From an uncultured Gammaproteobacteria bacterium (lineage in GTDB: Bacteria > Patescibacteriota > Microgenomatia > UBA10105 > UBA927), in the NCBI GenBank assembly GCA_964397755.1, contig CAYNJY010000002.1:15620-79619 (forward strand): 64,000 nucleotides of DNA, given 5' to 3'. The translations under genes were made by a program, and so were the position numbers. Under the pieces are notes generated by a model. The model was not told the DNA's origin and did no database searches. It worked only from the letters and a program-made list of their open reading frames with translations. Below, piece after piece: positions 400 through 10,125 of this stretch (its first letter is position 1; every line of letters begins with the position of its first letter).

Positions 400-588
400 G
401 TGAAGCATATGCATGCACAATGTCCGATATGTGATGCCGAGTTTGAGATTCTTGGGTCAACCGAGGTCACAGAGATTATAAGTTGCCACGAATGTCAGAA
501 TAAGCTGGAAGTGGCGAGCATTCATAAAGATACCAACAGGGCAGAAGTGAAAGAAGCGCCGAAAATAGAAGAAGACTGGGGAGAGTAA
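400..588 (+). CDS. lysW: LysW amino-group carrier protein (likely ATG start at 409)
   Basis: About 60 aa with an N-terminal Zn-ribbon (CPICD...CHEC) and an acidic C-terminus ending EDWGE, the LysW signature. It lies immediately upstream of lysX. Confidence 0.75.
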   Translation: MKHMHAQCPICDAEFEILGSTEVTEIISCHECQNKLEVASIHKDTNRAEVKEAPKIEEDWGE

Positions 589-601
589 TACAATAACAAC
601 T

Positions 602-1465
602 ATGAGAAAGAAAAAAATACGTATTGGAATACTCCATACCACCATACGTGGCGATGAGAAGTTATTGATCGATGCGGCTCAAAACCGCGCTATCGATCTG
701 TCACTTATTGACGTTCGTGAGCAGGTCTTTGATCCGCTGGTAGAGCGACCTCGTGTGGATATTGTACTGGAGCGATGTGTGTCGACAGTGAAGGGGATGC
801 ACGCGGTGGATTTCTATGAAAGTCTTGGGATACCCGCGGTGAATCCATTGGTCATTGCCAGAACTTGTGAAAACAAGTTCGTGACGTCCCTTGCGCTCGT
901 TCGTCACCAGGTCCCCACACCGCGTTTTGCGCTGGTGTTTGGCGAGGAGCAGGCCAAAAAGGCCGTTGGTGTGATAGGTGGCTACCCGGCGGTCATAAAA
1001 CCGGTGACGGGTTCGTGGGGAAGACTGATTGCCAGGGTAAATGATGAACACGCACTGGAAGCAGTGCTAGAACAGAAGACGATATTGGGTGGACCGCATC
1101 ATCACGCATTTTATATACAGCAGTTTATAGAGAAACCGGGAAGAGATATCCGGATACACGTTATCGGTGGGCGGGCTGTTGCGGCAATATACCGGACGAG
1201 CAGTCATTGGATTACCAACACCGCGCGAGGAGCGGAAGCTATCGCATGTCCGATAGACAAGGATTTGGGAAAAATCGCAAAAAAAGCAGGGGAGGCGATC
1301 GGGGAAGGGGTATTGGGTATTGATGTTTTTGAAACCAGCGGGGGGTACGTCGTGAATGAAGTGAACCACACCATGGAGTTTAAAAACGTCCAGAGGGTTA
1401 CCGGCATTGATATAGCAGGGATTATCCTGGATTATTGCTTGTCCGTCGTACGGAGGCAGCTATGA
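602..1465 (+). CDS. lysX: LysX/ArgX ATP-grasp ligase (RimK family) that loads the substrate onto the LysW C-terminus
   Basis: RimK-like ATP-grasp sequence. It follows lysW directly, and its stop overlaps the argC start as ATGA. Confidence 0.7.
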   Translation: MRKKKIRIGILHTTIRGDEKLLIDAAQNRAIDLSLIDVREQVFDPLVERPRVDIVLERCVSTVKGMHAVDFYESLGIPAVNPLVIARTCENKFVTSLALVRHQVPTPRFALVFGEEQAKKAVGVIGGYPAVIKPVTGSWGRLIARVNDEHALEAVLEQKTILGGPHHHAFYIQQFIEKPGRDIRIHVIGGRAVAAIYRTSSHWITNTARGAEAIACPIDKDLGKIAKKAGEAIGEGVLGIDVFETSGGYVVNEVNHTMEFKNVQRVTGIDIAGIILDYCLSVVRRQL

Positions 1466-2514
1466 AAGGGAAAATCCGCGTTTCTATCATCGGAGGTTCG
1501 GGGTATGCAGGGGGAGAGCTGTTGCGCATTCTTTTATTTCACCCCCATGTGACCATCCATCAGGTGACGTCGCGGCAGTTTGCCAGCGAGTCGGTGAGCC
1601 GTGCACACCCGAATTTGCGCAAAGTCACTGACCTCATCTTTTGCGATATGGATGATCTGGTGCCCTGTGACGTGCTTTTCGTCGCGCTGCCTAATGGCGT
1701 TTCCATGAGTTACATGAAGGAATTTGTGCAAAAGGCCGAGTATATTGTAGATTTGGGAGCAGATTTTCGATTGAAAAATCCAAGCACGTTCGCCCATTGG
1801 TATCGCACCGCGCATCTGCTGCCAGAACTCCTGCCGCGATTTATCTATGGCATCGCAGAACTTCGTAGAAAGGAACTGAAAAAGGCTACATACGCCGCCT
1901 GCGCCGGTTGTGAGGCAACGGTTTCTATTCTGACACTCTATCCGTTGGTGAAACATCGGCTTATCGAGGTTGATCGGATCATCGTCGACGCAAAAATGAG
2001 CAGTTCCCAGGGCGGAAATACGCCGAGCCTTGCATCACACCACCCGGAACGCCACGGAGTCGTCCGGTCATACAAACCCACGGACCACCGCCATAGCGCC
2101 GAGATAGAACAGGAATTGTCCGTTTATGATGATCATATCCGTGTGTCTGTTTCGGCGACGACCATAGAAATGGTGCGGGGGCTTCTCGTCACTATCCATG
2201 TAGTGCCCAAGGGCGATGTCACCGAGAAAGATGTATGGACAGCGTACAGAACGGAATATCAGAACGAGCCATTTATACGAATCGTGAAAGAACGGGAGGG
2301 AATCTACCGTTACCCTGAGCCAAAGCTCCTTATCGGTACAAATTACTGCGATATAGGATTTGCCTTGAGCAAGCGGGAGAACCGGCTGGTGGCCATAGGC
2401 GCCATAGACAACCTTGGGAAAGGAACCGCCGGTCAGGGTGTCCAAGCGATGAATATCATGCTCGGTTTTGACGAACGGGCCGGACTGTCGTTCCCCGGCA
2501 TACATCCGGTGTGA
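1462..2514 (+). CDS. argC: N-acetyl-gamma-glutamyl-phosphate reductase family (LysY/ArgC)
   Basis: An NAD-binding GGSGYAGGELLR N-terminus and ArgC-like length. A GGAGG RBS precedes the ATG at 1462. Confidence 0.8.
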   Translation: MKGKIRVSIIGGSGYAGGELLRILLFHPHVTIHQVTSRQFASESVSRAHPNLRKVTDLIFCDMDDLVPCDVLFVALPNGVSMSYMKEFVQKAEYIVDLGADFRLKNPSTFAHWYRTAHLLPELLPRFIYGIAELRRKELKKATYAACAGCEATVSILTLYPLVKHRLIEVDRIIVDAKMSSSQGGNTPSLASHHPERHGVVRSYKPTDHRHSAEIEQELSVYDDHIRVSVSATTIEMVRGLLVTIHVVPKGDVTEKDVWTAYRTEYQNEPFIRIVKEREGIYRYPEPKLLIGTNYCDIGFALSKRENRLVAIGAIDNLGKGTAGQGVQAMNIMLGFDERAGLSFPGIHPV

Positions 2515-2518
2515 AGCT

Positions 2519-3313
2519 ATGATTATTCTAAAAGTCGGTGGGGGTAAAGCTATGAACTGGGAATATATAGCGGAAGATGTCAACGCCTTGCAAGAGGATG
2601 TGATCATCGTGCATGGAGCCAACGCATATGCCTCAGAGATAGCAGAAAAACTCGGGGTTAAAGAAACAGTTATCATGTCTCCTTCCGGACACACCAGTCG
2701 ATACACGGATAAGGAAGCCATGGATGTTTTGACCATGACGTATGCCGGATTGGTAAACAAGACGATCGTTTCTGTCTTAAGGAGACACAAGATCAATGCG
2801 GTTGGCCTCTGCGGAGCAGACGGCGGGGTTTGGATGGGGAAGAGGAAGCACGCCATTTTATCCCAGGAAAACGGAAAGGTGAAAGTTATCCGTGATTCTC
2901 TGACCGGTAACGTCGAGTCAGTGAATAGGAGTCTTATCATGCTTCTTGTCGATCACAAATATACACCGGTGCTCACGATACCGGCGATCACGCGGGAAGG
3001 GGAGCTTATCAACGTAGACAACGATCGGGCGGTTGCCGTTATGGCCCGGGATTTAGCGGTCAAGAAGATCGTCATGTTGTTTGAGGCGCCGGGATTACTG
3101 CGCGACAGGAGCGACGAATCGACGAAAGTTGCACATATCAGGAAAGATGAGATCGATATGTATATCCATAAGGTAGAGGGAAGGATGCGCAAAAAGCTCC
3201 TCGGTATCAAAGAAGCATTTTTGTTCGGGGTGACCGACGTGTATTTGGGCGACGGCAGGATCGCGCATCCGATCGCGAGTGCTTTGTCCGGTGCCGGAAC
3301 GGTTATCCAATAA
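2519..3313 (+). CDS. argB: Acetylglutamate kinase family (LysZ/ArgB)
   Basis: An amino-acid kinase fold with the N-terminus MIILKVGGG. The listed ORF starts at 2468, but the ATG at 2519 immediately after the argC stop is more likely. Confidence 0.75.
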   Translation: MIILKVGGGKAMNWEYIAEDVNALQEDVIIVHGANAYASEIAEKLGVKETVIMSPSGHTSRYTDKEAMDVLTMTYAGLVNKTIVSVLRRHKINAVGLCGADGGVWMGKRKHAILSQENGKVKVIRDSLTGNVESVNRSLIMLLVDHKYTPVLTIPAITREGELINVDNDRAVAVMARDLAVKKIVMLFEAPGLLRDRSDESTKVAHIRKDEIDMYIHKVEGRMRKKLLGIKEAFLFGVTDVYLGDGRIAHPIASALSGAGTVIQ

Positions 3314-3316
3314 ATT

Positions 3317-4477
3317 ATGAGTGCTTCATCGCCAAAAAATTATTTTGTTGCCTCTTACCCGGATCGGGGTGTCGCGTTTGCCGGTGGCGAGGGCATGTAT
3401 CTTACGGAAAAGAGAGGCACCAAGTACTTGGATTTCGGCAGCAACTACGGCGTGAGTATATTCGGGTATAACCACCCGAGAATTACTCGGGCCCTCTCTG
3501 ACCAGTTGCATCGGCTCGTGAGCCTGCACGGTTCGTTTGGAAACGATGTACGGCAAGAGGCAGCCAGACGCTTGGTCGAGCGTTGCGGCGGAAAGATTTC
3601 CAAGGTGTTTTTTTCTAATTCCGGGTCTGAGGCCATGGAAGCGGCGCTGAAGTTTACTAAACTTTTCACCGGTACCTCACGCTTTGTTGCTTTCCGAAAT
3701 AGCTATCACGGCAAAACGCTCGGTTCCCTTTCCGCCACATCAGGTGAAAAATATCGTCAGGCATTTGAGCCTCTCTTGTGGCACTTTACTCATGTCCAGC
3801 TTGGTGACAAAAAAAGCCTGGAAGAAGCTGTAAAGGGAGAGATCGCCGCGATCATTTTAGAACCAGTACAGGGAGAAGGAGGCCTCTACGCCGCGCCGGC
3901 AGGGTACCTGGAATATCTTCAGGCATTGTGTAGCGAAAGAAACATCCTATTGATTGTTGATGAGATACAATGCGGCACAGGGAGAACCGGCACGTTTTTG
4001 GCAAGCCAGCTGTATGGGCTGGCGCCGGACATCATGTGCCTCGGCAAGGGTATAGCAGGAGGGGTCCCTGTAGGAGTAACATTGGTGAGCGAATCTGTGG
4101 CAGAACGTATTCCTGTTCACGTGCATACCTCCACGTTCGGTGGTAATCCCTTAGCGTGTGCAGGCATCGTCGCCGTGCTTAAAGAGTTTGAAGATGGTGC
4201 GTTACTCAAGCACGTTGGCGATATGGGTGCATATTTTCTCCGGCAACTGAAGACCCTGACTCATCCGAGCATTGTTGACGTACGCGGCGTTGGTCTGATG
4301 CTCGGAATAGAACTGCGTGAGAATGTCACGCCAGTTTTAAAAGCGCTCCAGGATCGTCGCATTATTGCCATTCCCGCCGGGTCGCATATCGTTCGCTTCC
4401 TTCCGCCGTATATCGTCACTAAACAAGATATAGATACGGTTACGGCAGCACTCAAAAACATATTTCAACAGTTGTAA
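3317..4477 (+). CDS. argD: Acetylornithine / LysW-gamma-L-lysine aminotransferase (class III PLP aminotransferase, LysJ/ArgD)
   Basis: A class-III aminotransferase with the motifs GNHPR...DEIQCGTGRTG...LGKG. Confidence 0.8.
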   Translation: MSASSPKNYFVASYPDRGVAFAGGEGMYLTEKRGTKYLDFGSNYGVSIFGYNHPRITRALSDQLHRLVSLHGSFGNDVRQEAARRLVERCGGKISKVFFSNSGSEAMEAALKFTKLFTGTSRFVAFRNSYHGKTLGSLSATSGEKYRQAFEPLLWHFTHVQLGDKKSLEEAVKGEIAAIILEPVQGEGGLYAAPAGYLEYLQALCSERNILLIVDEIQCGTGRTGTFLASQLYGLAPDIMCLGKGIAGGVPVGVTLVSESVAERIPVHVHTSTFGGNPLACAGIVAVLKEFEDGALLKHVGDMGAYFLRQLKTLTHPSIVDVRGVGLMLGIELRENVTPVLKALQDRRIIAIPAGSHIVRFLPPYIVTKQDIDTVTAALKNIFQQL

Positions 4478-4487
4478 TAACGCCACT

Positions 4488-5150
4488 ATGTGTAGGTTTC
4501 TCCTCGTTCGATCCAAAAAAAGGCTGTACCCAGGGACATTGCTCCAGGCATTCGCCGGGATGTGTCAGAAAAGTCACGCGCCGGATGGAGATTGGCAGGG
4601 CGACGGGTGGGGTGTGGCGTGGAAAGAAGGTGATCATTGGCAGCTTATGAAATCTCTCGCGCCGATATGGGAGGAAGAGGATCGTTTTTCCTCTATCGGA
4701 CAATCACATATTTTTGTAGCTCACGCCAGAAGCGCAGGCTTTCCACAGCATAAGGGAGTTCTTGCGTATAACCAACCCTATATTCATAACGAGCTCGCGT
4801 ATGTATTTAACGGCATGATGCGAGGGGTCGCATTGTCGATAAACGTGCCGGGGAATATCGGCGCCCAAAAAATATTCTCCTTAATCGTCAATGCCGCAAG
4901 CAGAAATAGGCCGGACGAATCTTTGTCCTACGTGCGGGATTTACTGCGAAGACATACAAAAAAGACTGAAGGGATGAATATAGGTCTCGTCCTGGGGGAT
5001 ACGCTGTATGCGCTTTGTGATTATGAGAACAATCCTGACTATTTCAGTCTTCGTTACTATGCAGATGAGAAGTTCACCCTGATTTGTTCAGAGCCAATCG
5101 GCGCTTATGAGTGGAGAATTATGGGTAAAGGTGAAATACTTACATTCTAA
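4488..5150 (+). CDS. Class-II (Ntn) glutamine amidotransferase-like hydrolase, EgtC/YafJ-like
   Basis: Starts Met-Cys (MCRFLL), the Ntn nucleophile position. DGWGVAW, HARSAGF and YNQPY resemble the GATase_4/6 / EgtC family. It is the last gene of the lysW operon. Confidence 0.55.
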   Translation: MCRFLLVRSKKRLYPGTLLQAFAGMCQKSHAPDGDWQGDGWGVAWKEGDHWQLMKSLAPIWEEEDRFSSIGQSHIFVAHARSAGFPQHKGVLAYNQPYIHNELAYVFNGMMRGVALSINVPGNIGAQKIFSLIVNAASRNRPDESLSYVRDLLRRHTKKTEGMNIGLVLGDTLYALCDYENNPDYFSLRYYADEKFTLICSEPIGAYEWRIMGKGEILTF

Positions 5151-5188
5151 ATACCTAAAGAGGGTTAGTTTAGTTATAATGGGACTAT

Positions 5189-6640
5189 ATGGTAACCATC
5201 GATGAGTTGAAAAAAACACGTTTGGAAAAACTGGAAGCCCTTAAAAAACGTGGAGTTGATCCGTATCCAGGTAAAGCTTTACGCAAGCAAACCATCAAAG
5301 AGGCGCGTAGCAGTAGGGGAGAGGTTTCCGTGGCCGGTCGGGTGGTGGGGCTCCGCGGGCACGGGAAGATCGTGTTTACGGATTTGACGGATGAGACAGG
5401 GAAAATCCAGTTGGTTTTTAAGGCCGACAGCCTTGATCAAAAGATATATAGCTTCCTTGAGTTCATCGACATCGGTGACTTTCTGGACGTCCAAGGGGAG
5501 GTCGGCAAAACGCAAGCCGGCGAGGTGTCGGTTTTTGCGAAAAACTTCCAGATTATCACAAAGGCCCTTCGCCCCCTGCCTGACCAGTGGTCAGGTTTCA
5601 AAGATGTCGAAGAGCGCTACCGGCAACGCTACGTGGATCTCCTGATGAACCCTGACGTGCGGGAGATTTTCGTCAAGCGAGCCAACGTGATTCGGTTTTT
5701 ACAAGAGTATCTTTACAAAGAAGGGTTCATGGAGGTGGAGACACCGGTTTTACAGTCTATTTACGGCGGAGCCGCGGCTAAGCCATTCACCACCCACCAT
5801 AATGCTTTGGACATCGATTTTTACCTGCGCATTTCCGATGAGTTGTACTTAAAACGATTGATCATTGGAGGATTTGAAAAAGTGTACGAAATCGGCAAAG
5901 ACTTTCGCAACGAAGGCGTCGATCGGAATCACAACCCGGAGTTTACGATGCTTGAGTTTTACTGGGCGTATGCCGATTACGAGAAGCTCATGGAGTTTAC
6001 CGAGGGTATGTTTGCGGCGCTCCTTACGGCAGTGCATGGCTCTCTGGTCCTGGAATATCAAGGAAAGCAGCTTGATTTTACCCCGCCCTGGCCGCGGGTA
6101 ACCTATAGGCAAGCGCTCCTGAAGCACACGGGTATAGATATTGATGAGGCCGATACCGCAGAAAAACTAAAAAAATTCGTCAAAGAGGAGGGGATCGCTT
6201 TTGATGAGAAGAGAACCGTTGGTTACGGGGCGCTCCTTGATGCGCTGTATAAACAAACGACGCGAGCACACCTTGCAGGCCCACTTTTTCTTACCGAGCG
6301 GCCGACAGCCTTTGTCTCGCTGGCTAAACGATTGTCGACTGATCCGCGGAAAACTGCATCCTTTCAGCTTTTGGTTGCCGGCGAGGAACTGATTAATGCG
6401 TACAACGAACTTAACGATCCGCAAGATCAGGCTGACCGCTGGCGGGCGTCCGAGAAACTTGGGAAAAAGGGGCAAAGGGAGCATGAGGCCTTTGATAAAG
6501 ACTATATCCGGGCGCTTGAATACGGTATGCCGCCGACTGCCGGATGGGGACTGGGGATAGATAGGCTAGTCGCTATCTTGACCAATCAACGCTCCATTAA
6601 AGACGTCATCCTGTTTTCTACGCTTCGACCTGAGAAATAA
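5189..6640 (+). CDS. lysS: Lysyl-tRNA synthetase, class II
   Basis: Full length (483 aa) with an N-terminal OB anticodon-binding domain plus the class-II core (FRNEG, GGAAAKPF, GLGIDRL). Confidence 0.9.
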   Translation: MVTIDELKKTRLEKLEALKKRGVDPYPGKALRKQTIKEARSSRGEVSVAGRVVGLRGHGKIVFTDLTDETGKIQLVFKADSLDQKIYSFLEFIDIGDFLDVQGEVGKTQAGEVSVFAKNFQIITKALRPLPDQWSGFKDVEERYRQRYVDLLMNPDVREIFVKRANVIRFLQEYLYKEGFMEVETPVLQSIYGGAAAKPFTTHHNALDIDFYLRISDELYLKRLIIGGFEKVYEIGKDFRNEGVDRNHNPEFTMLEFYWAYADYEKLMEFTEGMFAALLTAVHGSLVLEYQGKQLDFTPPWPRVTYRQALLKHTGIDIDEADTAEKLKKFVKEEGIAFDEKRTVGYGALLDALYKQTTRAHLAGPLFLTERPTAFVSLAKRLSTDPRKTASFQLLVAGEELINAYNELNDPQDQADRWRASEKLGKKGQREHEAFDKDYIRALEYGMPPTAGWGLGIDRLVAILTNQRSIKDVILFSTLRPEK

Positions 6641-7299: not shown

Positions 7300-7920
7300 A
7301 TGCACAAACTTCTTATTGCAACAACAAATCCCGGGAAATTAGCAGAGATTAAAAGATTTTTGTCTGATCTGGCCCTGGAGCTCGTTAGCCTTAAGGATGT
7401 AGGCATTACTGAAAGAGTCAAGGAGATAGGAAAGACGTTTGAGGAGAACGCTGTCCTTAAGGCAAAATTCTATGCTGAAAAATCGGGTCTCCCTACGCTG
7501 GCTGATGATGGTGGATTTGAGGTTGATGCCCTTGGCGGTGAGCCGGGAGTCAAATCGCATCGCTGGATTCACGGCGATCGCGAAGACGAGGATGAGGAGC
7601 TTATACGGTACACATTTCAGAAAATGAAGGGTTTACCCCGAGCGAAACGAGGTGCCCAATTGCGGTTGGTGCTTGCACTCATACTACCTGATGGATCGAT
7701 CCATACTGTGACCGATGCGGCGCGAGGTGTGATCCCTCTCAAGCCTTCTAACGAGCGCGTTCCCGGTTTTCCGTATCGGTCCATTTTGTATCTTCCCGAT
7801 ATAGGAAAGTTCTACAATCACGATTTGTTAACTGACGAAGAAACAGAGAAGTATAATCACCGCAAACGGGCACTTGATGCATTAAAACCTATACTGCGAA
7901 AGTATTTGACATCAGAATGA
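7300..7920 (+). CDS. rdgB: Non-canonical purine NTP pyrophosphatase (RdgB/Ham1 family)
   Basis: The N-terminus MHKLLIATTNPGKLAE is the Ham1 signature. Confidence 0.8.
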   Translation: MHKLLIATTNPGKLAEIKRFLSDLALELVSLKDVGITERVKEIGKTFEENAVLKAKFYAEKSGLPTLADDGGFEVDALGGEPGVKSHRWIHGDREDEDEELIRYTFQKMKGLPRAKRGAQLRLVLALILPDGSIHTVTDAARGVIPLKPSNERVPGFPYRSILYLPDIGKFYNHDLLTDEETEKYNHRKRALDALKPILRKYLTSE

Positions 7921-7934
7921 TGCATACGTATAAT
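7906..7934 (+). promoter_or_regulatory. Near-consensus sigma70 promoter (TTGACA, 17 nt spacer, TATAAT) launching a roughly 270-nt 5' leader
   Basis: TTGACA at 7906-7911 and TATAAT at 7929-7934 are separated by exactly 17 nt. Confidence 0.55.
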
Positions 7935-7940
7935 ACGTTT

Positions 7941-8208
7941 ATTAACAACGTATAAAAGCGTTTACATACCGAACTTTCCCTCGGTAGAGTCCTTCGACAA
8001 GCTCAGGATGAACTGCTTGAAGGCACGCAGCTTTCCGGAAGTACTACAACAGGAGTATATAAGGAAAGACGGGATTTCCCGTTATAGAAAAAGAGTTATG
8101 TCGCTATTGACGCGGAGTAACTCATGAGGTTAAGCAGGTGACTGCGTAGCAAAGAAAAGTGGCACCACGAGAACACCTCGTCTTTTCATAAAAAGGAGGT
8201 GTTTTTTT
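7941..8208 (+). promoter_or_regulatory. T-box riboswitch-like leader of the histidine-phosphatase + serS operon
   Basis: Antiterminator: helix A1 GAAAAG (8154-59) pairs with CTTTTC (8182-87), a 7-nt bulge UGGCACC sits at 8160-66, and helix A2 ACGAG (8167-71) pairs with CTCGT (8177-81). A competing terminator runs 8173-8208, with stems at 8173-79 / 8196-8202 and inner 8182-86 / 8191-95, followed by U7. Its 3' arm sequesters the AGGAGG SD. Confidence 0.5.
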
Positions 8209-8844
8209 GTGGGAAAAATGTATCTTGCCAGACACGCGGAGTCAGTCGCCAACACGCAAGGTATGTATCAAGGGCAGACGTACGATACTGGTTTATCAAA
8301 GCTTGGTTTGCAACAAGCGCAATCGCTTGGCCGTCGCTTTCATGGCCTTCACCTTGATCAGGTCGTGACCTCGCCGCTTTGGCGTACGCGGTTGACTGCG
8401 GCAGTCGTAGCAAGAGGGAAGAATATTCCACTTGTGGTAGATAGTCGGATCAGCGAAACAAACCACGGAGCGTGGGAGGGATTGCGGAAAACTTCGGTAG
8501 CGGCCCGCTGGCCGAGGTTATATCGGCAATGGCTACGGTTACCATCGACGGTTCATTTTCCCGGCGGTGAGGCGTTTAGAGAGACGCGCGCACGAGTGCT
8601 TGAGTGGTGGAAATGTGCATTGCGCTATCCTGGCACCCAGCTAGTGGTTACTCATGACAACATTTTGCGGATCATTGTTGCCCAAGTTTTGGGGTTACCG
8701 CTTGATAACATCTGGCAATTCCATGTGTATCCGACCGCGATCACCACAGTTGCCGTTACAGGTGGTAAACCCACTATTAGAACTCTGAACGACACTAGGC
8801 ATGTAGAGGAGTGCGACCAGCGCCTTGCAAAGCACGCGCTTTAG
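8209..8844 (+). CDS. Histidine phosphatase superfamily (phosphoglycerate-mutase-like) protein; possibly a phosphoserine-type phosphatase
   Basis: Has the RHAES catalytic motif near the N-terminus. The start is GTG at 8209 or ATG at 8218. serS follows after 15 nt. Confidence 0.7.
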   Translation: MGKMYLARHAESVANTQGMYQGQTYDTGLSKLGLQQAQSLGRRFHGLHLDQVVTSPLWRTRLTAAVVARGKNIPLVVDSRISETNHGAWEGLRKTSVAARWPRLYRQWLRLPSTVHFPGGEAFRETRARVLEWWKCALRYPGTQLVVTHDNILRIIVAQVLGLPLDNIWQFHVYPTAITTVAVTGGKPTIRTLNDTRHVEECDQRLAKHAL

Positions 8845-8859
8845 ACGTATTCTAAACGT

Positions 8860-10125
8860 ATGTTGGATAGTACATTCATACGAGAACATTTGGAATTGTG
8901 CAAGCAGGCGGCCAAAGACAAGGGTCGAGATATGGACTGGAATGGGCTGCTTTCTCTGGATGATCAGAGAAGGGAGCTCATTGGGAAGGTGGAGGGGCTG
9001 AGAGCGGAGAGGAATGCAATCTCCAATACACAATCTCCAATATCCAATACTAGGGGAAAAGAGATCAAGAAGGAATTGAAGGCATTAGAAGAAGAATTGC
9101 GGGGGGTTGAGGAGAAGTTTGGACTGTTAATGCTGACGGTTCCCAACGTACCGGACAAAAGCGTGCCGGTTGGGAACGATGCATCGGGAAATGTGGAAGT
9201 GAAAAAATGGGGCAAGGTGCCAAAAGTTGATTTTCCCGTCCGCGACCACATAGAACTTGCAAAATCACTGGACCTTATCGACTTTGAACGCGGCGCCAAA
9301 GTGGGTGGTGCGCGGGCATACTTCCTCAAAAACGAGGCCGCCCAGATGGAGCTAGCTCTCATGTGGTATACCCTTCACAAGCTTGTGGGGAAAGGGTATA
9401 TGCCGCTTATCGCTCCATCGTTGGTTCGCGAGTTTACACTCTTTGGCAACGGTCAATTTCCGTGGGGTCGGGAAGAGGTCTATAGGGTTGAGAAAGACGA
9501 TATGTACTTGGCCGGGACTGCAGAGGTTCCCGTAACCGCATACTTCGCGGACGAAGTCCTTGCCGAAAAAGACTTGCCCAAAAAGCTTGTGGCCTTCTCC
9601 CCCTGTTTCCGTCGCGAGGCCGGAAGCTACGGTAAGGATACCAAAGGGGTTTATCGACTACACCAATTCAACAAGATTGAACAAGTAATTGTCTCAACCA
9701 ACGATGTGAACAACTCTCTTACTCTTCATGAGGAGTTATTAGCTAATGCAGAAGAAATTTTGCAAGACCTCGAACTGCCGTACCGGGTGATGCTCATGTG
9801 CACGGGCGAGATGGGCGAGCCGCAGGTGAAGAAGTATGACGTAGAAACGTGGATGCCTAAACGCCGGGCACCAGACGGCGCCCTGGGGGCATATGGGGAG
9901 ACGATGTCGAACTCATTCATGGGGGATTTCCAAGCTCGTAGACTTAAGATCCGGTACAAAGCCAAAGACGGAACGGTTATGTTCTGCCACACGCTCAATA
10001 ACACCGCGATTGCTTCGCCGCGGATTCTTATCGCCATCTTTGAAAACTATCAGCAGAAAGACGGATCTATTAAAATTCCGAAGGTGCTCCAATTCTTCTT
10101 AGGAAAGAAAGAAATTCGTCGATAA
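8860..10125 (+). CDS. serS: Seryl-tRNA synthetase
   Basis: An N-terminal coiled-coil arm plus the class-II core (421 aa). Confidence 0.9.
   Translation: MLDSTFIREHLELCKQAAKDKGRDMDWNGLLSLDDQRRELIGKVEGLRAERNAISNTQSPISNTRGKEIKKELKALEEELRGVEEKFGLLMLTVPNVPDKSVPVGNDASGNVEVKKWGKVPKVDFPVRDHIELAKSLDLIDFERGAKVGGARAYFLKNEAAQMELALMWYTLHKLVGKGYMPLIAPSLVREFTLFGNGQFPWGREEVYRVEKDDMYLAGTAEVPVTAYFADEVLAEKDLPKKLVAFSPCFRREAGSYGKDTKGVYRLHQFNKIEQVIVSTNDVNNSLTLHEELLANAEEILQDLELPYRVMLMCTGEMGEPQVKKYDVETWMPKRRAPDGALGAYGETMSNSFMGDFQARRLKIRYKAKDGTVMFCHTLNNTAIASPRILIAIFENYQQKDGSIKIPKVLQFFLGKKEIRR
9017..9052 (+). repeat. About 14-nt tandem duplication (caatctccaataca / caatctccaatatc / caatact) inside the serS N-terminal arm, encoding ISNTQSPISNT
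   Basis: A direct tandem repeat is read off the sequence. The reading frame is preserved. Confidence 0.6.

Follow-up and report, generated by a model that had tools for sequence, protein, structure and literature searches.

A probable serine-specific T-box riboswitch with an ultrashort Stem I in front of a histidine-phosphatase gene and serS

Which tRNA is read by the long leader that precedes a histidine-phosphatase gene and serS in this uncultured bacterium, and by what kind of RNA element is it read? A sequence-only reading of the locus had proposed that tRNA-Ser is sensed by a T-box, with a PGAM-family phosphatase and serS under its control. The covariance-model match, the serine specifier and the conserved leaders of related loci support this proposal. 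We consider the leader at 7941-8208 of the window (the whole 64,000-nt stretch of DNA that was analysed) to be best explained, with a probability of roughly 0.85, as a serine-specific T-box riboswitch of unusual architecture that controls a PspA-like phosphatase and serS. The RNA anatomy of the leader is established by its sequence, by a covariance model and by covariation.

Anatomy of the leader

The leader is preceded by a promoter.

7906-7934, + strand: sigma-70-type promoter (-35 TTGACA 7906-7911, 17-nt spacer, -10 TATAAT 7929-7934)

It matches the consensus at 12/12 positions, and a similar promoter is found in the relatives at the same spacing from the conserved leader 5' end, UUAACAA. 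From this arrangement, transcription would start near 7941, giving a leader of 7941-8208.

A covariance search with the Rfam T-box model RF00230, the check suggested along with the sequence-only reading, yields a significant match that spans model positions 1-219 with 53.8 bits (E=3.9e-11 locally, 6.1e-9 for the whole 64-kb window), and it is the sole Rfam match at E<0.1 within the window. The score lies below the gathering score of 93 bits; an Rfam scan of the whole window at the gathering threshold gives no match, and the T-box surfaced in E-value mode only. The family considered here comprises 19 leaders upstream of the same phosphatase gene, namely that of the window and those of 18 other loci. 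The relatives score 37-63 bits, 8/19 leaders are undetected by RF00230 at E<0.01 and 0/19 reach 93 bits, so that this class is invisible to routine annotation. The low scores are accounted for by a non-canonical Stem I, which has neither the long arm nor the distal tRNA-elbow platform. The leader folds with z=-4.1 against shuffles. Together, the model match, this fold and the conservation at 18 other loci exceed what is expected by chance.

7958-8028, + strand: Stem I module, base helix GCGU 7958-7961 paired with ACGC 8025-8028, enclosing the specifier hairpin and an extra hairpin
7967-7986, + strand: ultrashort Stem I specifier hairpin, UACCGA 7967-7972 paired with UCGGUA 7981-7986 (6 bp), terminal loop ACUUUCCC 7973-7980
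7977-7979, + strand: specifier codon UCC (Ser), the sole triplet invariant over all loops of the 19 leaders, predicted partner anticodon GGA of tRNA-Ser
7989-8024, + strand: extra hairpin found only in the window, located at the Stem I junction, 7991-7997 paired with 8017-8023, holding 'GAA GGC A' and Ser codons

The Stem I region is only 62 nt long against 88 positions in the RF00230 model, and about 40 nt once the window-specific insert is subtracted. It has neither a long arm carrying an internal specifier loop nor the AG bulge and distal loop that make up the tRNA-elbow platform. Only the antiterminator, described below, is canonical; Stem I is not. The base helix is 94% paired across the family; the Rfam alignment pairs GC 7958-7959 with GC 8027-8028, and homology offers an alternative base helix, AGC 7957-7959 with GCU 8030-8032. 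A K-turn at this position is not evident in the window subtype (UUUACA / GA, with no 5' GA), whereas relatives with 6-7-nt loops show a K-turn-like GCG-UUU-GA ... GA-GCU.

The specifier hairpin is present in 19/19 leaders, with stem sequences that differ in at least 12 versions. Its stem is 100% paired, with compensatory changes at 5/6 pairs, and its covariation score of 0.68 compares with 0.20 for shuffles (0/500) and at most 0.15 for slid registers. RNAalifold returned Stems I, II, IIA and III and the terminator independently, with 19 compensatory pairs. Stem I and a serine specifier, which the earlier reading expected covariation to reveal, were thereby located: UCC occurs in the Stem I terminal loop of all 19 leaders. 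Other triplets of the loop were considered and rejected. ACU, CUU and UUU are excluded by the loop variants ACAUUCCC and ACGUUCCC of relatives, and UUC and CCC by the variant AAUCCAA. Directly 3' of the specifier, 10 leaders, including the window (UCC-C), have C and the other 9 have A; the window subtype lacks the conserved purine there.

The specifier had been sought earlier among AGU, UCC and UCG at 7989-7997. These codons do exist outside the specifier loop (AGU 7988-7990, UCC 7990-7992, UCG 7994-7996), but they sit in the extra hairpin that only the window has. This hairpin folds at -11.2 kcal/mol, and 7989-8024 aligns cleanly as an insertion that is missing from the 8 other window-type leaders (MAFFT, RNAalifold) and from all 18 relatives. 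Locus L002 carries an unrelated hairpin at the same junction.

8031-8068, + strand: Stem II, lower helix 8031-8036 paired with 8063-8068, upper helix 8042-8045 paired with 8054-8057
8070-8081, + strand: Stem IIA hairpin, CGGG 8070-8073 paired with CCCG 8078-8081, invariant
8075-8090, + strand: IIB pseudoknot, U8075-U8077 paired with A8088-A8090
8093-8123, + strand: extra hairpin in the linker from Stem IIA/B to Stem III, 8093-8099 paired with 8117-8123, inner helix 8101-8104 with 8112-8115 (RNAfold)
8129-8150, + strand: Stem III, 8129-8132 paired with 8147-8150 and 8134-8137 with 8142-8145 (Rfam alignment, RNAfold)

The internal loop of Stem II contains a string of five purines, GGAAG 8037-8041, which resembles the S-turn described for Stem II of T-boxes (PMC7778990). 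Compensatory changes are found at 4/6 lower and 4/4 upper pairs of Stem II, and RNAalifold reports 7 such pairs in Stem III. The pseudoknot pair 8075:8090 appears as UA, AU, CG, GU and UG, five pair types among 9 leaders, and the covariation score of the pseudoknot exceeds 492/500 shuffles, which is modest evidence. The linker hairpin is shared by most window-type relatives and missing from L012 and L044.

Antiterminator, terminator and proposed mechanism

8154-8187, + strand: antiterminator, with the T-box sequence AAAAGUGGCACCACGAG at 8155-8171
GAAAAG 8154-8159 with CUUUUC 8182-8187, + strand: helix A1 (6 bp)
8160-8166, + strand: 7-nt bulge UGGCACC, of which UGGC is predicted to pair with the tRNA 3' end GCCA
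ACGAG 8167-8171 with CUCGU 8177-8181, + strand: helix A2 (5 bp)
8173-8208, + strand: intrinsic terminator, stem 8173-8202 with a 7-bp GC-rich core (ACACCUC 8173-8179 paired with GAGGUGU 8196-8202) and U7 tract 8202-8208
8194-8199, + strand: Shine-Dalgarno sequence AGGAGG, inside the terminator 3' arm and 9 nt upstream of GUG 8209

The sequence-only reading had pointed out the promoter, helix A1, the UGGCACC bulge, helix A2 and a competing terminator with a U7 tract that holds the Shine-Dalgarno sequence, and all of these lie at the coordinates that it gave. All 11/11 antiterminator pairs are standard. The arrangement of A1, bulge and A2 is kept in the homologous leaders: UGGNACC is found in 19/19 (UGGC in 17, UGGU in 2), and among the window-type leaders pairing in the antiterminator reaches 98%, with compensatory changes at 2 places. 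A1 occurs in at least 7 different complementary versions across the family. A crude complementarity test of A1 did not beat shuffled strands; since any U-tract will pair with a strand rich in A, this test carries no information.

The terminator 5' arm (8173-8186) overlaps the 3' strands of A2 and A1, which makes the two folds mutually exclusive, and the relatives follow the same logic. The terminator folds at about -15 to -16.7 kcal/mol against -8.5 kcal/mol for the antiterminator, and it is the more stable of the two in 16/16 leaders folded (L005, L010 and L044 excluded). Within the window-type subgroup it is 95% paired without covariation, since its sequence is conserved there. In other subgroups a U-run follows hairpins of unrelated sequence, and 17/19 leaders show a run of at least 5 U after the 3' hairpin. 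The Shine-Dalgarno sequence is placed in the same way in L002-L004, L008, L009, L014, L015 and L044.

Bacterial tRNA-Ser includes a GGA isoacceptor and carries a G73 discriminator. GGA and G73 are accordingly the expected anticodon and discriminator here; neither the window nor the 19 loci contain a tRNA-Ser gene or any other tRNA gene. The UCC triplet as serine specifier is consistent with the pairing of UGGC to G73 and with the serS gene downstream. A metagenome scan for T-box cores with a non-C discriminator-pairing base (GAAAAGTGGDACCACGAG) gave 78 matches, 76 of which were due to chance; the two real ones, L020 and L044, again precede the same phosphatase gene and have UCC as specifier and UGGU in the bulge. 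The scan revealed no specificity for another amino acid.

We suppose, by analogy with the established T-box mechanism, that the leader would operate as follows. Uncharged tRNA-Ser(GGA) would pair through its anticodon with UCC 7977-7979, and its free 3' end GCCA, including the G73 discriminator, would pair with the UGGC bulge. Stem II and IIA/B may brace the anticodon contact and so replace the missing elbow-binding platform; these elements have been described to make up for a Stem I that is short (PMC11297988, PMC7583486). Pairing with the tRNA 3' end would stabilise the weak antiterminator against the stronger terminator, allowing RNA polymerase to pass the U7 tract. Charged tRNA-Ser could not make the 3'-end contact; the terminator would form and transcription would halt just before the GUG start codon. 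The position of the Shine-Dalgarno sequence suggests a second layer of control, in that its capture by the terminator 3' arm would also block translation of a full-length mRNA that has refolded.

Regulated genes and alternative explanations

8209-8844, + strand: histidine-phosphatase (PGAM-family) gene, candidate PspA-like phosphoserine phosphatase, start GUG 8209 (ATG 8218 in the public annotation)
8860-10125, + strand: serS (seryl-tRNA synthetase), separated from the phosphatase gene by 15 nt

The earlier assignment of these two genes, with serS following the histidine phosphatase after 15 nt, was borne out by matches to PF00300 (His_Phos_1, 173 bits) and TIGR00414 (443.8 bits, cutoff 301.65). 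The two genes are adjacent at 15 related loci. The idea that the phosphatase acts on phosphoserine has gained support, with phosphoserine remaining a candidate substrate. The best PDB match of the protein is 4IJ5/4IJ6, phosphoserine phosphatase 1 of H. thermophilus (E=8e-30, full length), and its best NCBIfam match is PspA (NF045917), at 135.2 bits below the equivalog cutoff of 350. Catalytic residues R8, H9, N15, R59, E83 and H149, whose roles in the histidine-phosphatase fold are known (PMC12051542), are all present. In comparison with the metal-independent Hydrogenobacter thermophilus PspA (iPSP1, dPGM superfamily; 4IJ5, 4IJ6), the protein has the same length (211 aa), aligns over all of it and shares the RHAES motif and the catalytic residues (Arg, His, Asn, Arg, Glu, His); the two are only moderately related, as the NCBIfam score of 135 bits against 350 indicates, and the substrate is putative. 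On these grounds, the enzyme is likely a phosphoserine phosphatase making the serine that serS charges.

The window contains neither serA nor serC. A distant phosphatase homologue at L018 lies close to a SerA-type 2-hydroxyacid dehydrogenase, and the window also holds a parallel arrangement of a Lys pathway with lysS. The operon may extend into a downstream methyltransferase gene and secA. The best named SecA relatives belong to Candidatus Gottesmanbacteria, Candidatus Woesebacteria and 'Patescibacteria group', suggesting that the host is a Gottesmanbacteria-like member of the Patescibacteria (CPR). The remark in the sequence-only reading that T-boxes are rare outside the Firmicutes therefore carries even more weight.

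Other readings of the RNA have to be weighed against this one. The stretch GAAGGCA 8019-8025, which forms part of the 3' half of a hairpin within the Stem I region, resembles the glyQS specifier context, 'GAA GGC A', of the O. iheyensis glyQ structure, and a glycine T-box of the glyQS type with a canonical long Stem I could be drawn around it. We rejected this specifier, since it is inside the insertion that the 18 relatives lack; moreover, an AG bulge and a distal loop are both missing, UGGC would mismatch U73 of bacterial tRNA-Gly, the synthetase gene downstream is serS, and Stem II and IIA/B are found here while glycine T-boxes are without them (PMC11297988), which leaves the glycine reading with hardly any credibility. 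That the leader is a decayed, non-functional remnant appears scarcely more credible. The sub-threshold Rfam score, the truncated Stem I and the missing purine after the specifier would fit decay, but UCC and UGGNACC are invariant or nearly so in 19 leaders and diverged stems compensate, indicating strong purifying selection, and the promoter matches the consensus perfectly. A more serious contender, though still improbable, is a T-box that acts on translation only, like the ileS class of Actinobacteria, with the 3' hairpin as a Shine-Dalgarno sequestrator and the U-tract as a U-rich spacer. The Shine-Dalgarno sequence does lie in the 3' arm with GUG 8209 directly after the U7 tract; the hairpin of L010 has no U-run, that of L013 has an interrupted one, and a short Stem I is tied to translational control in the literature (PMC7583486, PMC11297988). 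However, a GC-rich hairpin is followed by 5-7 U in 17/19 leaders, and in L001, L006 and L017 the terminator, which contains no Shine-Dalgarno sequence, is located upstream of the start codon at a distance of about 48 to 320 nt. Sequestration is impossible in these three, where transcription termination is the only possible output, and in the window the two modes are not mutually exclusive.

It is also possible, though we regard it as unlikely, that the T-box is real and the phosphatase has a different phosphoester as its substrate (for example alpha-ribazole phosphate, a sugar phosphate or an intermediate of riboflavin synthesis), being serine-regulated only through its co-transcription with serS. 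CobC-type models score nearly as high as PspA (128 bits), the PspA score is far below its cutoff, and the lack of serA and serC in the window would be in line with such a role, as would the generally limited amino-acid biosynthesis of CPR bacteria. Within the same superfamily, an Aquifex phosphatase that has iPSP1 as its closest structural homologue takes part in riboflavin synthesis (PMC12051542). On the other hand, the first gene after the T-box is the phosphatase, not serS, in every leader, and this pairing is kept across 40-70% protein divergence. Among solved structures, the best relative was named a phosphoserine phosphatase on experimental grounds and has the RHAES motif in common, and both the L018 homologue near a SerA-type dehydrogenase and the parallel lysine arrangement in the window speak against another substrate.

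Relation to known T-boxes and implications

As a serine-specific T-box, the leader resembles the transcriptional class I T-boxes (RF00230; B. subtilis tyrS/serS and Paenibacillus polymyxa serA, PMC8002221) in its UGGN-bulge antiterminator, which competes with a terminator and U-tract, and in its Stem II with a purine-rich S-turn, its IIA/B pseudoknot and its Stem III. In known serine T-boxes the specifier is either UCC or AGC, the controlled genes are serS, serA and serC, and UGGU is present in one example that was tested (PMC8002221); the UCC specifier and serS as a target are shared. In contrast to class I T-boxes, the window leader lacks the long Stem I, the internal specifier loop and the AG-bulge/distal-loop platform, its specifier is in the terminal loop, the window subtype has no purine after the specifier, and the score is 53.8 bits against the gathering score of 93. 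The probable host, a member of the Patescibacteria (CPR), also sets it apart from the class I T-boxes of Firmicutes. Transcriptional T-boxes are said to 'generally require' the distal tRNA-elbow platform (PMC7583486).

Another close parallel is offered by the translational ileS T-boxes of Actinobacteria (M. tuberculosis, M. smegmatis, N. farcinica), for which a Stem I that is ultrashort and bears its specifier apically is described (Sherwood et al. 2015, as cited in PMC7583486, PMC11297988 and PMC10482949). The window leader has in common with them the ultrashort Stem I, the specifier in the apical loop, the missing elbow contact, the reliance on Stem II and IIA/B, and a Shine-Dalgarno sequence within the alternative 3' hairpin. 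It differs from them in several respects: 17/19 leaders of its family have a hairpin and a U5-U7 tract, sometimes far from the start codon; the specificity is for serine (UCC, UGGC) and not isoleucine; the operon is phosphatase-serS and not ileS; the phylum is another one; and the window has extra hairpins at the Stem I junction and in the linker. The U-tract after the hairpin, together with the distance from the start codon in several relatives, indicates an intrinsic terminator.

We conclude that the serine T-box is real and that it is a known kind of element in a variant form, with a minimal tRNA-reading hairpin and a transcription terminator, in a probable CPR host. The further proposition that CPR bacteria of the Microgenomates type hold a distinct, hitherto unrecognised T-box class, in which an ultrashort Stem I, its specifier in the apical loop, is combined with a genuine intrinsic terminator, is more tentative, and we would put its chance somewhat below even. 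A dedicated covariance model is needed to detect this class of ultrashort-Stem-I serine T-boxes. In the literature searched, we found neither T-box control of PspA-type enzymes nor a link between T-boxes and CPR.

In the accepted view, transcriptional T-boxes need fast tRNA capture through a long Stem I platform, and an ultrashort Stem I is affordable only for the slower translational switches of Actinobacteria. Since the family described here joins an ultrashort Stem I to terminators, it allows this kinetic argument to be tested in nature, together with the extent to which Stem II and IIA/B alone can support co-transcriptional sensing. If the proposed class exists, co-transcriptional tRNA sensing would be possible without a Stem I elbow-binding platform. 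To our knowledge, very little is known about gene regulation in CPR bacteria. At least one CPR lineage would thus monitor the charging of tRNA-Ser and couple it to the putative last step of serine synthesis and to serS. An otherwise generic 'phosphoglycerate mutase family' gene thereby obtains a testable function and, if the proposed class exists, the element would single out the PspA-type enzyme as the phosphatase that supplies serine in these reduced CPR genomes.

Identity and anatomy of the leader

The leader upstream of the phosphatase gene is of a known kind, the T-box. RF00230 matches positions 7952-8188 (model positions 1-219; 53.8 bits with E-value reporting) at E=3.9e-11 in a local search and 6.1e-9 over the whole window, which holds no other Rfam match at E<0.1. 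The match is significant, although its score falls below the RF00230 gathering score of 93 because Stem I spans 62 nt in place of 88 model positions; at the gathering threshold, Rfam gives no match in the whole window. The gathering score is reached by none of the 19 leaders (the window and 18 relatives), and 8 of them go undetected at E<0.01. These E-values, the UGGNACC element present in all 19 leaders and the covariation described below together bear out the T-box call of the sequence-only reading.

Features of the leader and the genes that follow it (all + strand)
7906-7934, promoter TTGACA-17-TATAAT
7967-7986, Stem I specifier hairpin, UCC in its apical loop
7977-7979, specifier UCC, in that apical loop
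8154-8159 with 8182-8187, helix A1, GAAAAG with CUUUUC, standard pairs
8160-8166, T-box bulge UGGCACC
8167-8171 with 8177-8181, helix A2, ACGAG with CUCGU, standard pairs
8173-8202, terminator, then U7 at 8202-8208, about -15 to -16.7 kcal/mol
8194-8199, Shine-Dalgarno AGGAGG, inside the terminator 3' arm
8209-8844, His_Phos_1 phosphatase
8860-10125, serS, TIGR00414, 444 bits against a cutoff of 302, 15 nt past the phosphatase gene

The promoter proposed earlier as near-consensus matches the consensus at 12 of 12 positions, and the leader folds more stably than 200 of 200 shuffles (z=-4.1). The antiterminator claimed for A1, UGGCACC and A2 is confirmed, with 11 of 11 pairs standard, and is the MFE fold of a transcript ending at 8188 (-8.5 kcal/mol). 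Sequence and fold energies likewise agree with the competing terminator that buries AGGAGG: it outcompetes the antiterminator once its 3' arm is transcribed (about -15 to -16.7 versus -8.5 kcal/mol). The start codon GUG 8209 lies directly 3' of the U-tract.

In window-type leaders, the subgroup resembling the window's own, the 5'-most ~15 nt of the transcript (7942-7956, UUAACAA-N-UAUAAAA) are kept as UUAACAANUAAAUAAA, always ~7 nt downstream of the -10 box. RNAalifold pairs the AUAAA of this 5' end with the U-tract of the terminator, possibly no more than trivial A/U pairing.

Covariation and the serine specifier

Homologous loci were collected by a phosphatase protein search (7 genome loci and 10 through encoding contigs) and a DNA-pattern scan (2 more), and a leader precedes the phosphatase gene at every locus except the distant, non-CPR L018. 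The A1/bulge/A2 arrangement is kept among them: UGGNACC occurs in all 19 leaders (17 UGGC, 2 UGGU), and across the window-type leaders 98% of antiterminator pairs are kept, two compensatory changes among them. Unguided RNAalifold of nine window-type leaders recovers the Stem I base, the specifier hairpin, both Stem II parts, IIA, Stem III and the terminator, with compensatory changes at 19 pairs; the IIB pseudoknot pair 8075:8090 is seen as UA, AU, CG, GU and UG. Within this subgroup the terminator shows no covariation because its sequence is conserved there, and other subgroups carry unrelated hairpins, followed by U-runs.

A short hairpin with UCC in its terminal loop is found in all 19 leaders. 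The loops read AC(U/A/G)UUCCC, AAUCCAA, CUUCCAA, AUUCCA(A), CUUCCAG or CUUUCCA, and UCC is the only triplet shared by every one. The stem has at least 12 sequence versions; in a MAFFT alignment it is 100% paired and shows compensatory changes at 5 of 6 pairs. It scores 0.68 for covariation, where shuffles give 0.20 (0/500) and slid registers ≤0.15. The expected Ser codon is thus present, at 7977-7979 rather than at the 7989-7997 first proposed: AGU, UCC and UCG at 7988-7996 lie inside a hairpin (~7989-8024) unique to the window, as does a glyQS-like 'GAA GGC A' at 8019-8025, and both candidates were rejected as specifiers.

Bacterial tRNA-Ser includes a GGA-anticodon species with a G73 discriminator, and the combination of UCC and UGGC fits this tRNA-Ser(GGA). 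No tRNA genes were found in the window and related loci. Among known Ser T-boxes the specifier is UCC or AGC, and one tested example has UGGU (PMC8002221).

L002 has an unrelated 27-nt hairpin (2840-2866) at the same Stem I junction as the window's 7989-8024 hairpin, which itself shares CCUUCGAC..GCUCAGG with the Stem II apex of L001 (2645-2680); inserted hairpins seem to be tolerated at the T-box junctions of this lineage. An extra hairpin at 8093-8123, in the Stem IIA/B-Stem III linker, has a conserved inner GUC...GGAG motif and occurs in most window-type leaders, L012 and L044 excepted.

Mode of control

In its anatomy the leader agrees with the known T-box switch. Uncharged tRNA-Ser would contact the specifier and the UGGC bulge, and the antiterminator so stabilised would let transcription continue through the U-tract; charged tRNA-Ser would give neither stabilisation nor read-through.

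Translational Actinobacterial ileS T-boxes also have an ultrashort Stem I with an apical specifier, and in them Stem II and IIA/B replace the missing elbow contact (PMC7583486, PMC11297988). Unlike those, 17 of the 19 leaders here carry 5-7 U after a hairpin. The terminators of L001, L006 and L017 lie ~48 to 320 nt away from the start codon and contain no Shine-Dalgarno, so the output there must be termination. L010 has no U-run after its hairpin and may be sequestrator-only. In the window, a second, translational layer of control is plausible, since the terminator buries the Shine-Dalgarno and the start codon directly follows the U-tract.

The close relatives L010 (2002-2045) and L011 (1958-2000) differ in that the L011 hairpin is followed by U6 and that of L010 has its start codon 2 nt past it, which looks like a terminator-to-sequestrator change inside one subgroup. 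In L005 (2915-2966, Amesbacteria), a terminator helix of GCACCUG with CAGGUGC, then U6, surrounds the entire UGGCACC element without overlapping its 3' strand; no A2 is apparent, and the switching topology is unlike the rest of the family. Between T-box terminator and phosphatase gene, L001 (2840-2995) has an additional ~150 nt with internal palindromes, which still keeps the AAGGAGGUGUUUUUUUGUG motif that adjoins the start codon in other leaders, and L017 (1829-1999) has a 56-aa ORF with no Pfam match.

Regulated genes and host

The predicted histidine-phosphatase gene, followed 15 nt later by serS, was found as described (His_Phos_1; TIGR00414); no terminator was found 3' of serS. The public record P0001 (208 aa) starts at ATG 8218. 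GUG 8209 would give 211 aa and fits the Shine-Dalgarno spacing, and in every relative the start codon is the one that immediately follows the U-tract.

The phosphatase has the full set of catalytic residues of its fold. Among solved structures the best match is H. thermophilus phosphoserine phosphatase 1 (4IJ5; E=8e-30, full length, RHAES motif in both). NCBIfam ranks PspA first, at 135 bits, far under its cutoff of 350 and closely followed by CobC-type models. Since an Aquifex phosphatase of the same superfamily, with iPSP1 as closest structural homologue, works in riboflavin synthesis (PMC12051542), the substrate can only be inferred; phosphoserine is the candidate, supported mainly by the gene's invariant first place under a Ser T-box, directly before serS. 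The distant homologue in L018 (2001-4645; 38% identity, without a T-box) adjoins a DUF1015 gene and a SerA-type 2-hydroxyacid dehydrogenase, hinting that the family as a whole may serve the serine pathway.

The best-matching named SecA relatives (72-76% identity, some on contigs of 1.0-1.3 Mb) all belong to Candidatus Gottesmanbacteria, Candidatus Woesebacteria or 'Patescibacteria group', and MAGs of Collier-, Gottesman- and Amesbacteria supply several of the related loci; the host is therefore probably a Microgenomates-type CPR bacterium. CPR genomes usually lack amino-acid biosynthesis, so the complete LysW-carrier lysine cluster at 400-6640, which runs straight into lysS, is unexpected. No Rfam match was found upstream of it.

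Lysine cluster
400-588, lysW (62 aa, C-terminal EDWGE)
602-1465, lysX
1435-2514, argC/lysY
2468-3313, lysZ
3317-4477, lysJ/argD
4488-5150, EgtC-like amidotransferase
5189-6640, lysS

L011 (1-832) carries a class I LysRS (PF01921) upstream of its HD/Ham1/T-box block, where the window and other relatives (L008, L009, L012, L013) have class II; the two appear swapped at a syntenic position. A long same-strand block at 29000-60000 encodes sugar-nucleotide enzymes (a GDP-mannose-dehydratase-type epimerase, UDP-glucose dehydrogenase), at least 7 large paralogous membrane glycosyltransferases of the YfhO/PMT_2 type and a polysaccharide flippase; its content suggests that much is invested in glycosylating the envelope.

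In a full-text literature search of partial coverage, we found no paper joining T-boxes with CPR, Patescibacteria or Microgenomates and none that connects phosphoserine phosphatases with Ser T-boxes; an earlier description of either is possible. Beside the serine operon, the lysine cluster with lysS gives the window another pairing of 'amino-acid supply plus charging'. New in this T-box variant are a Ser-specific leader with an ultrashort Stem I, an intrinsic terminator that doubles as a Shine-Dalgarno mask, the control of a PspA-like phosphatase together with serS, the CPR host, and an entire family that scores under the curated Rfam threshold.
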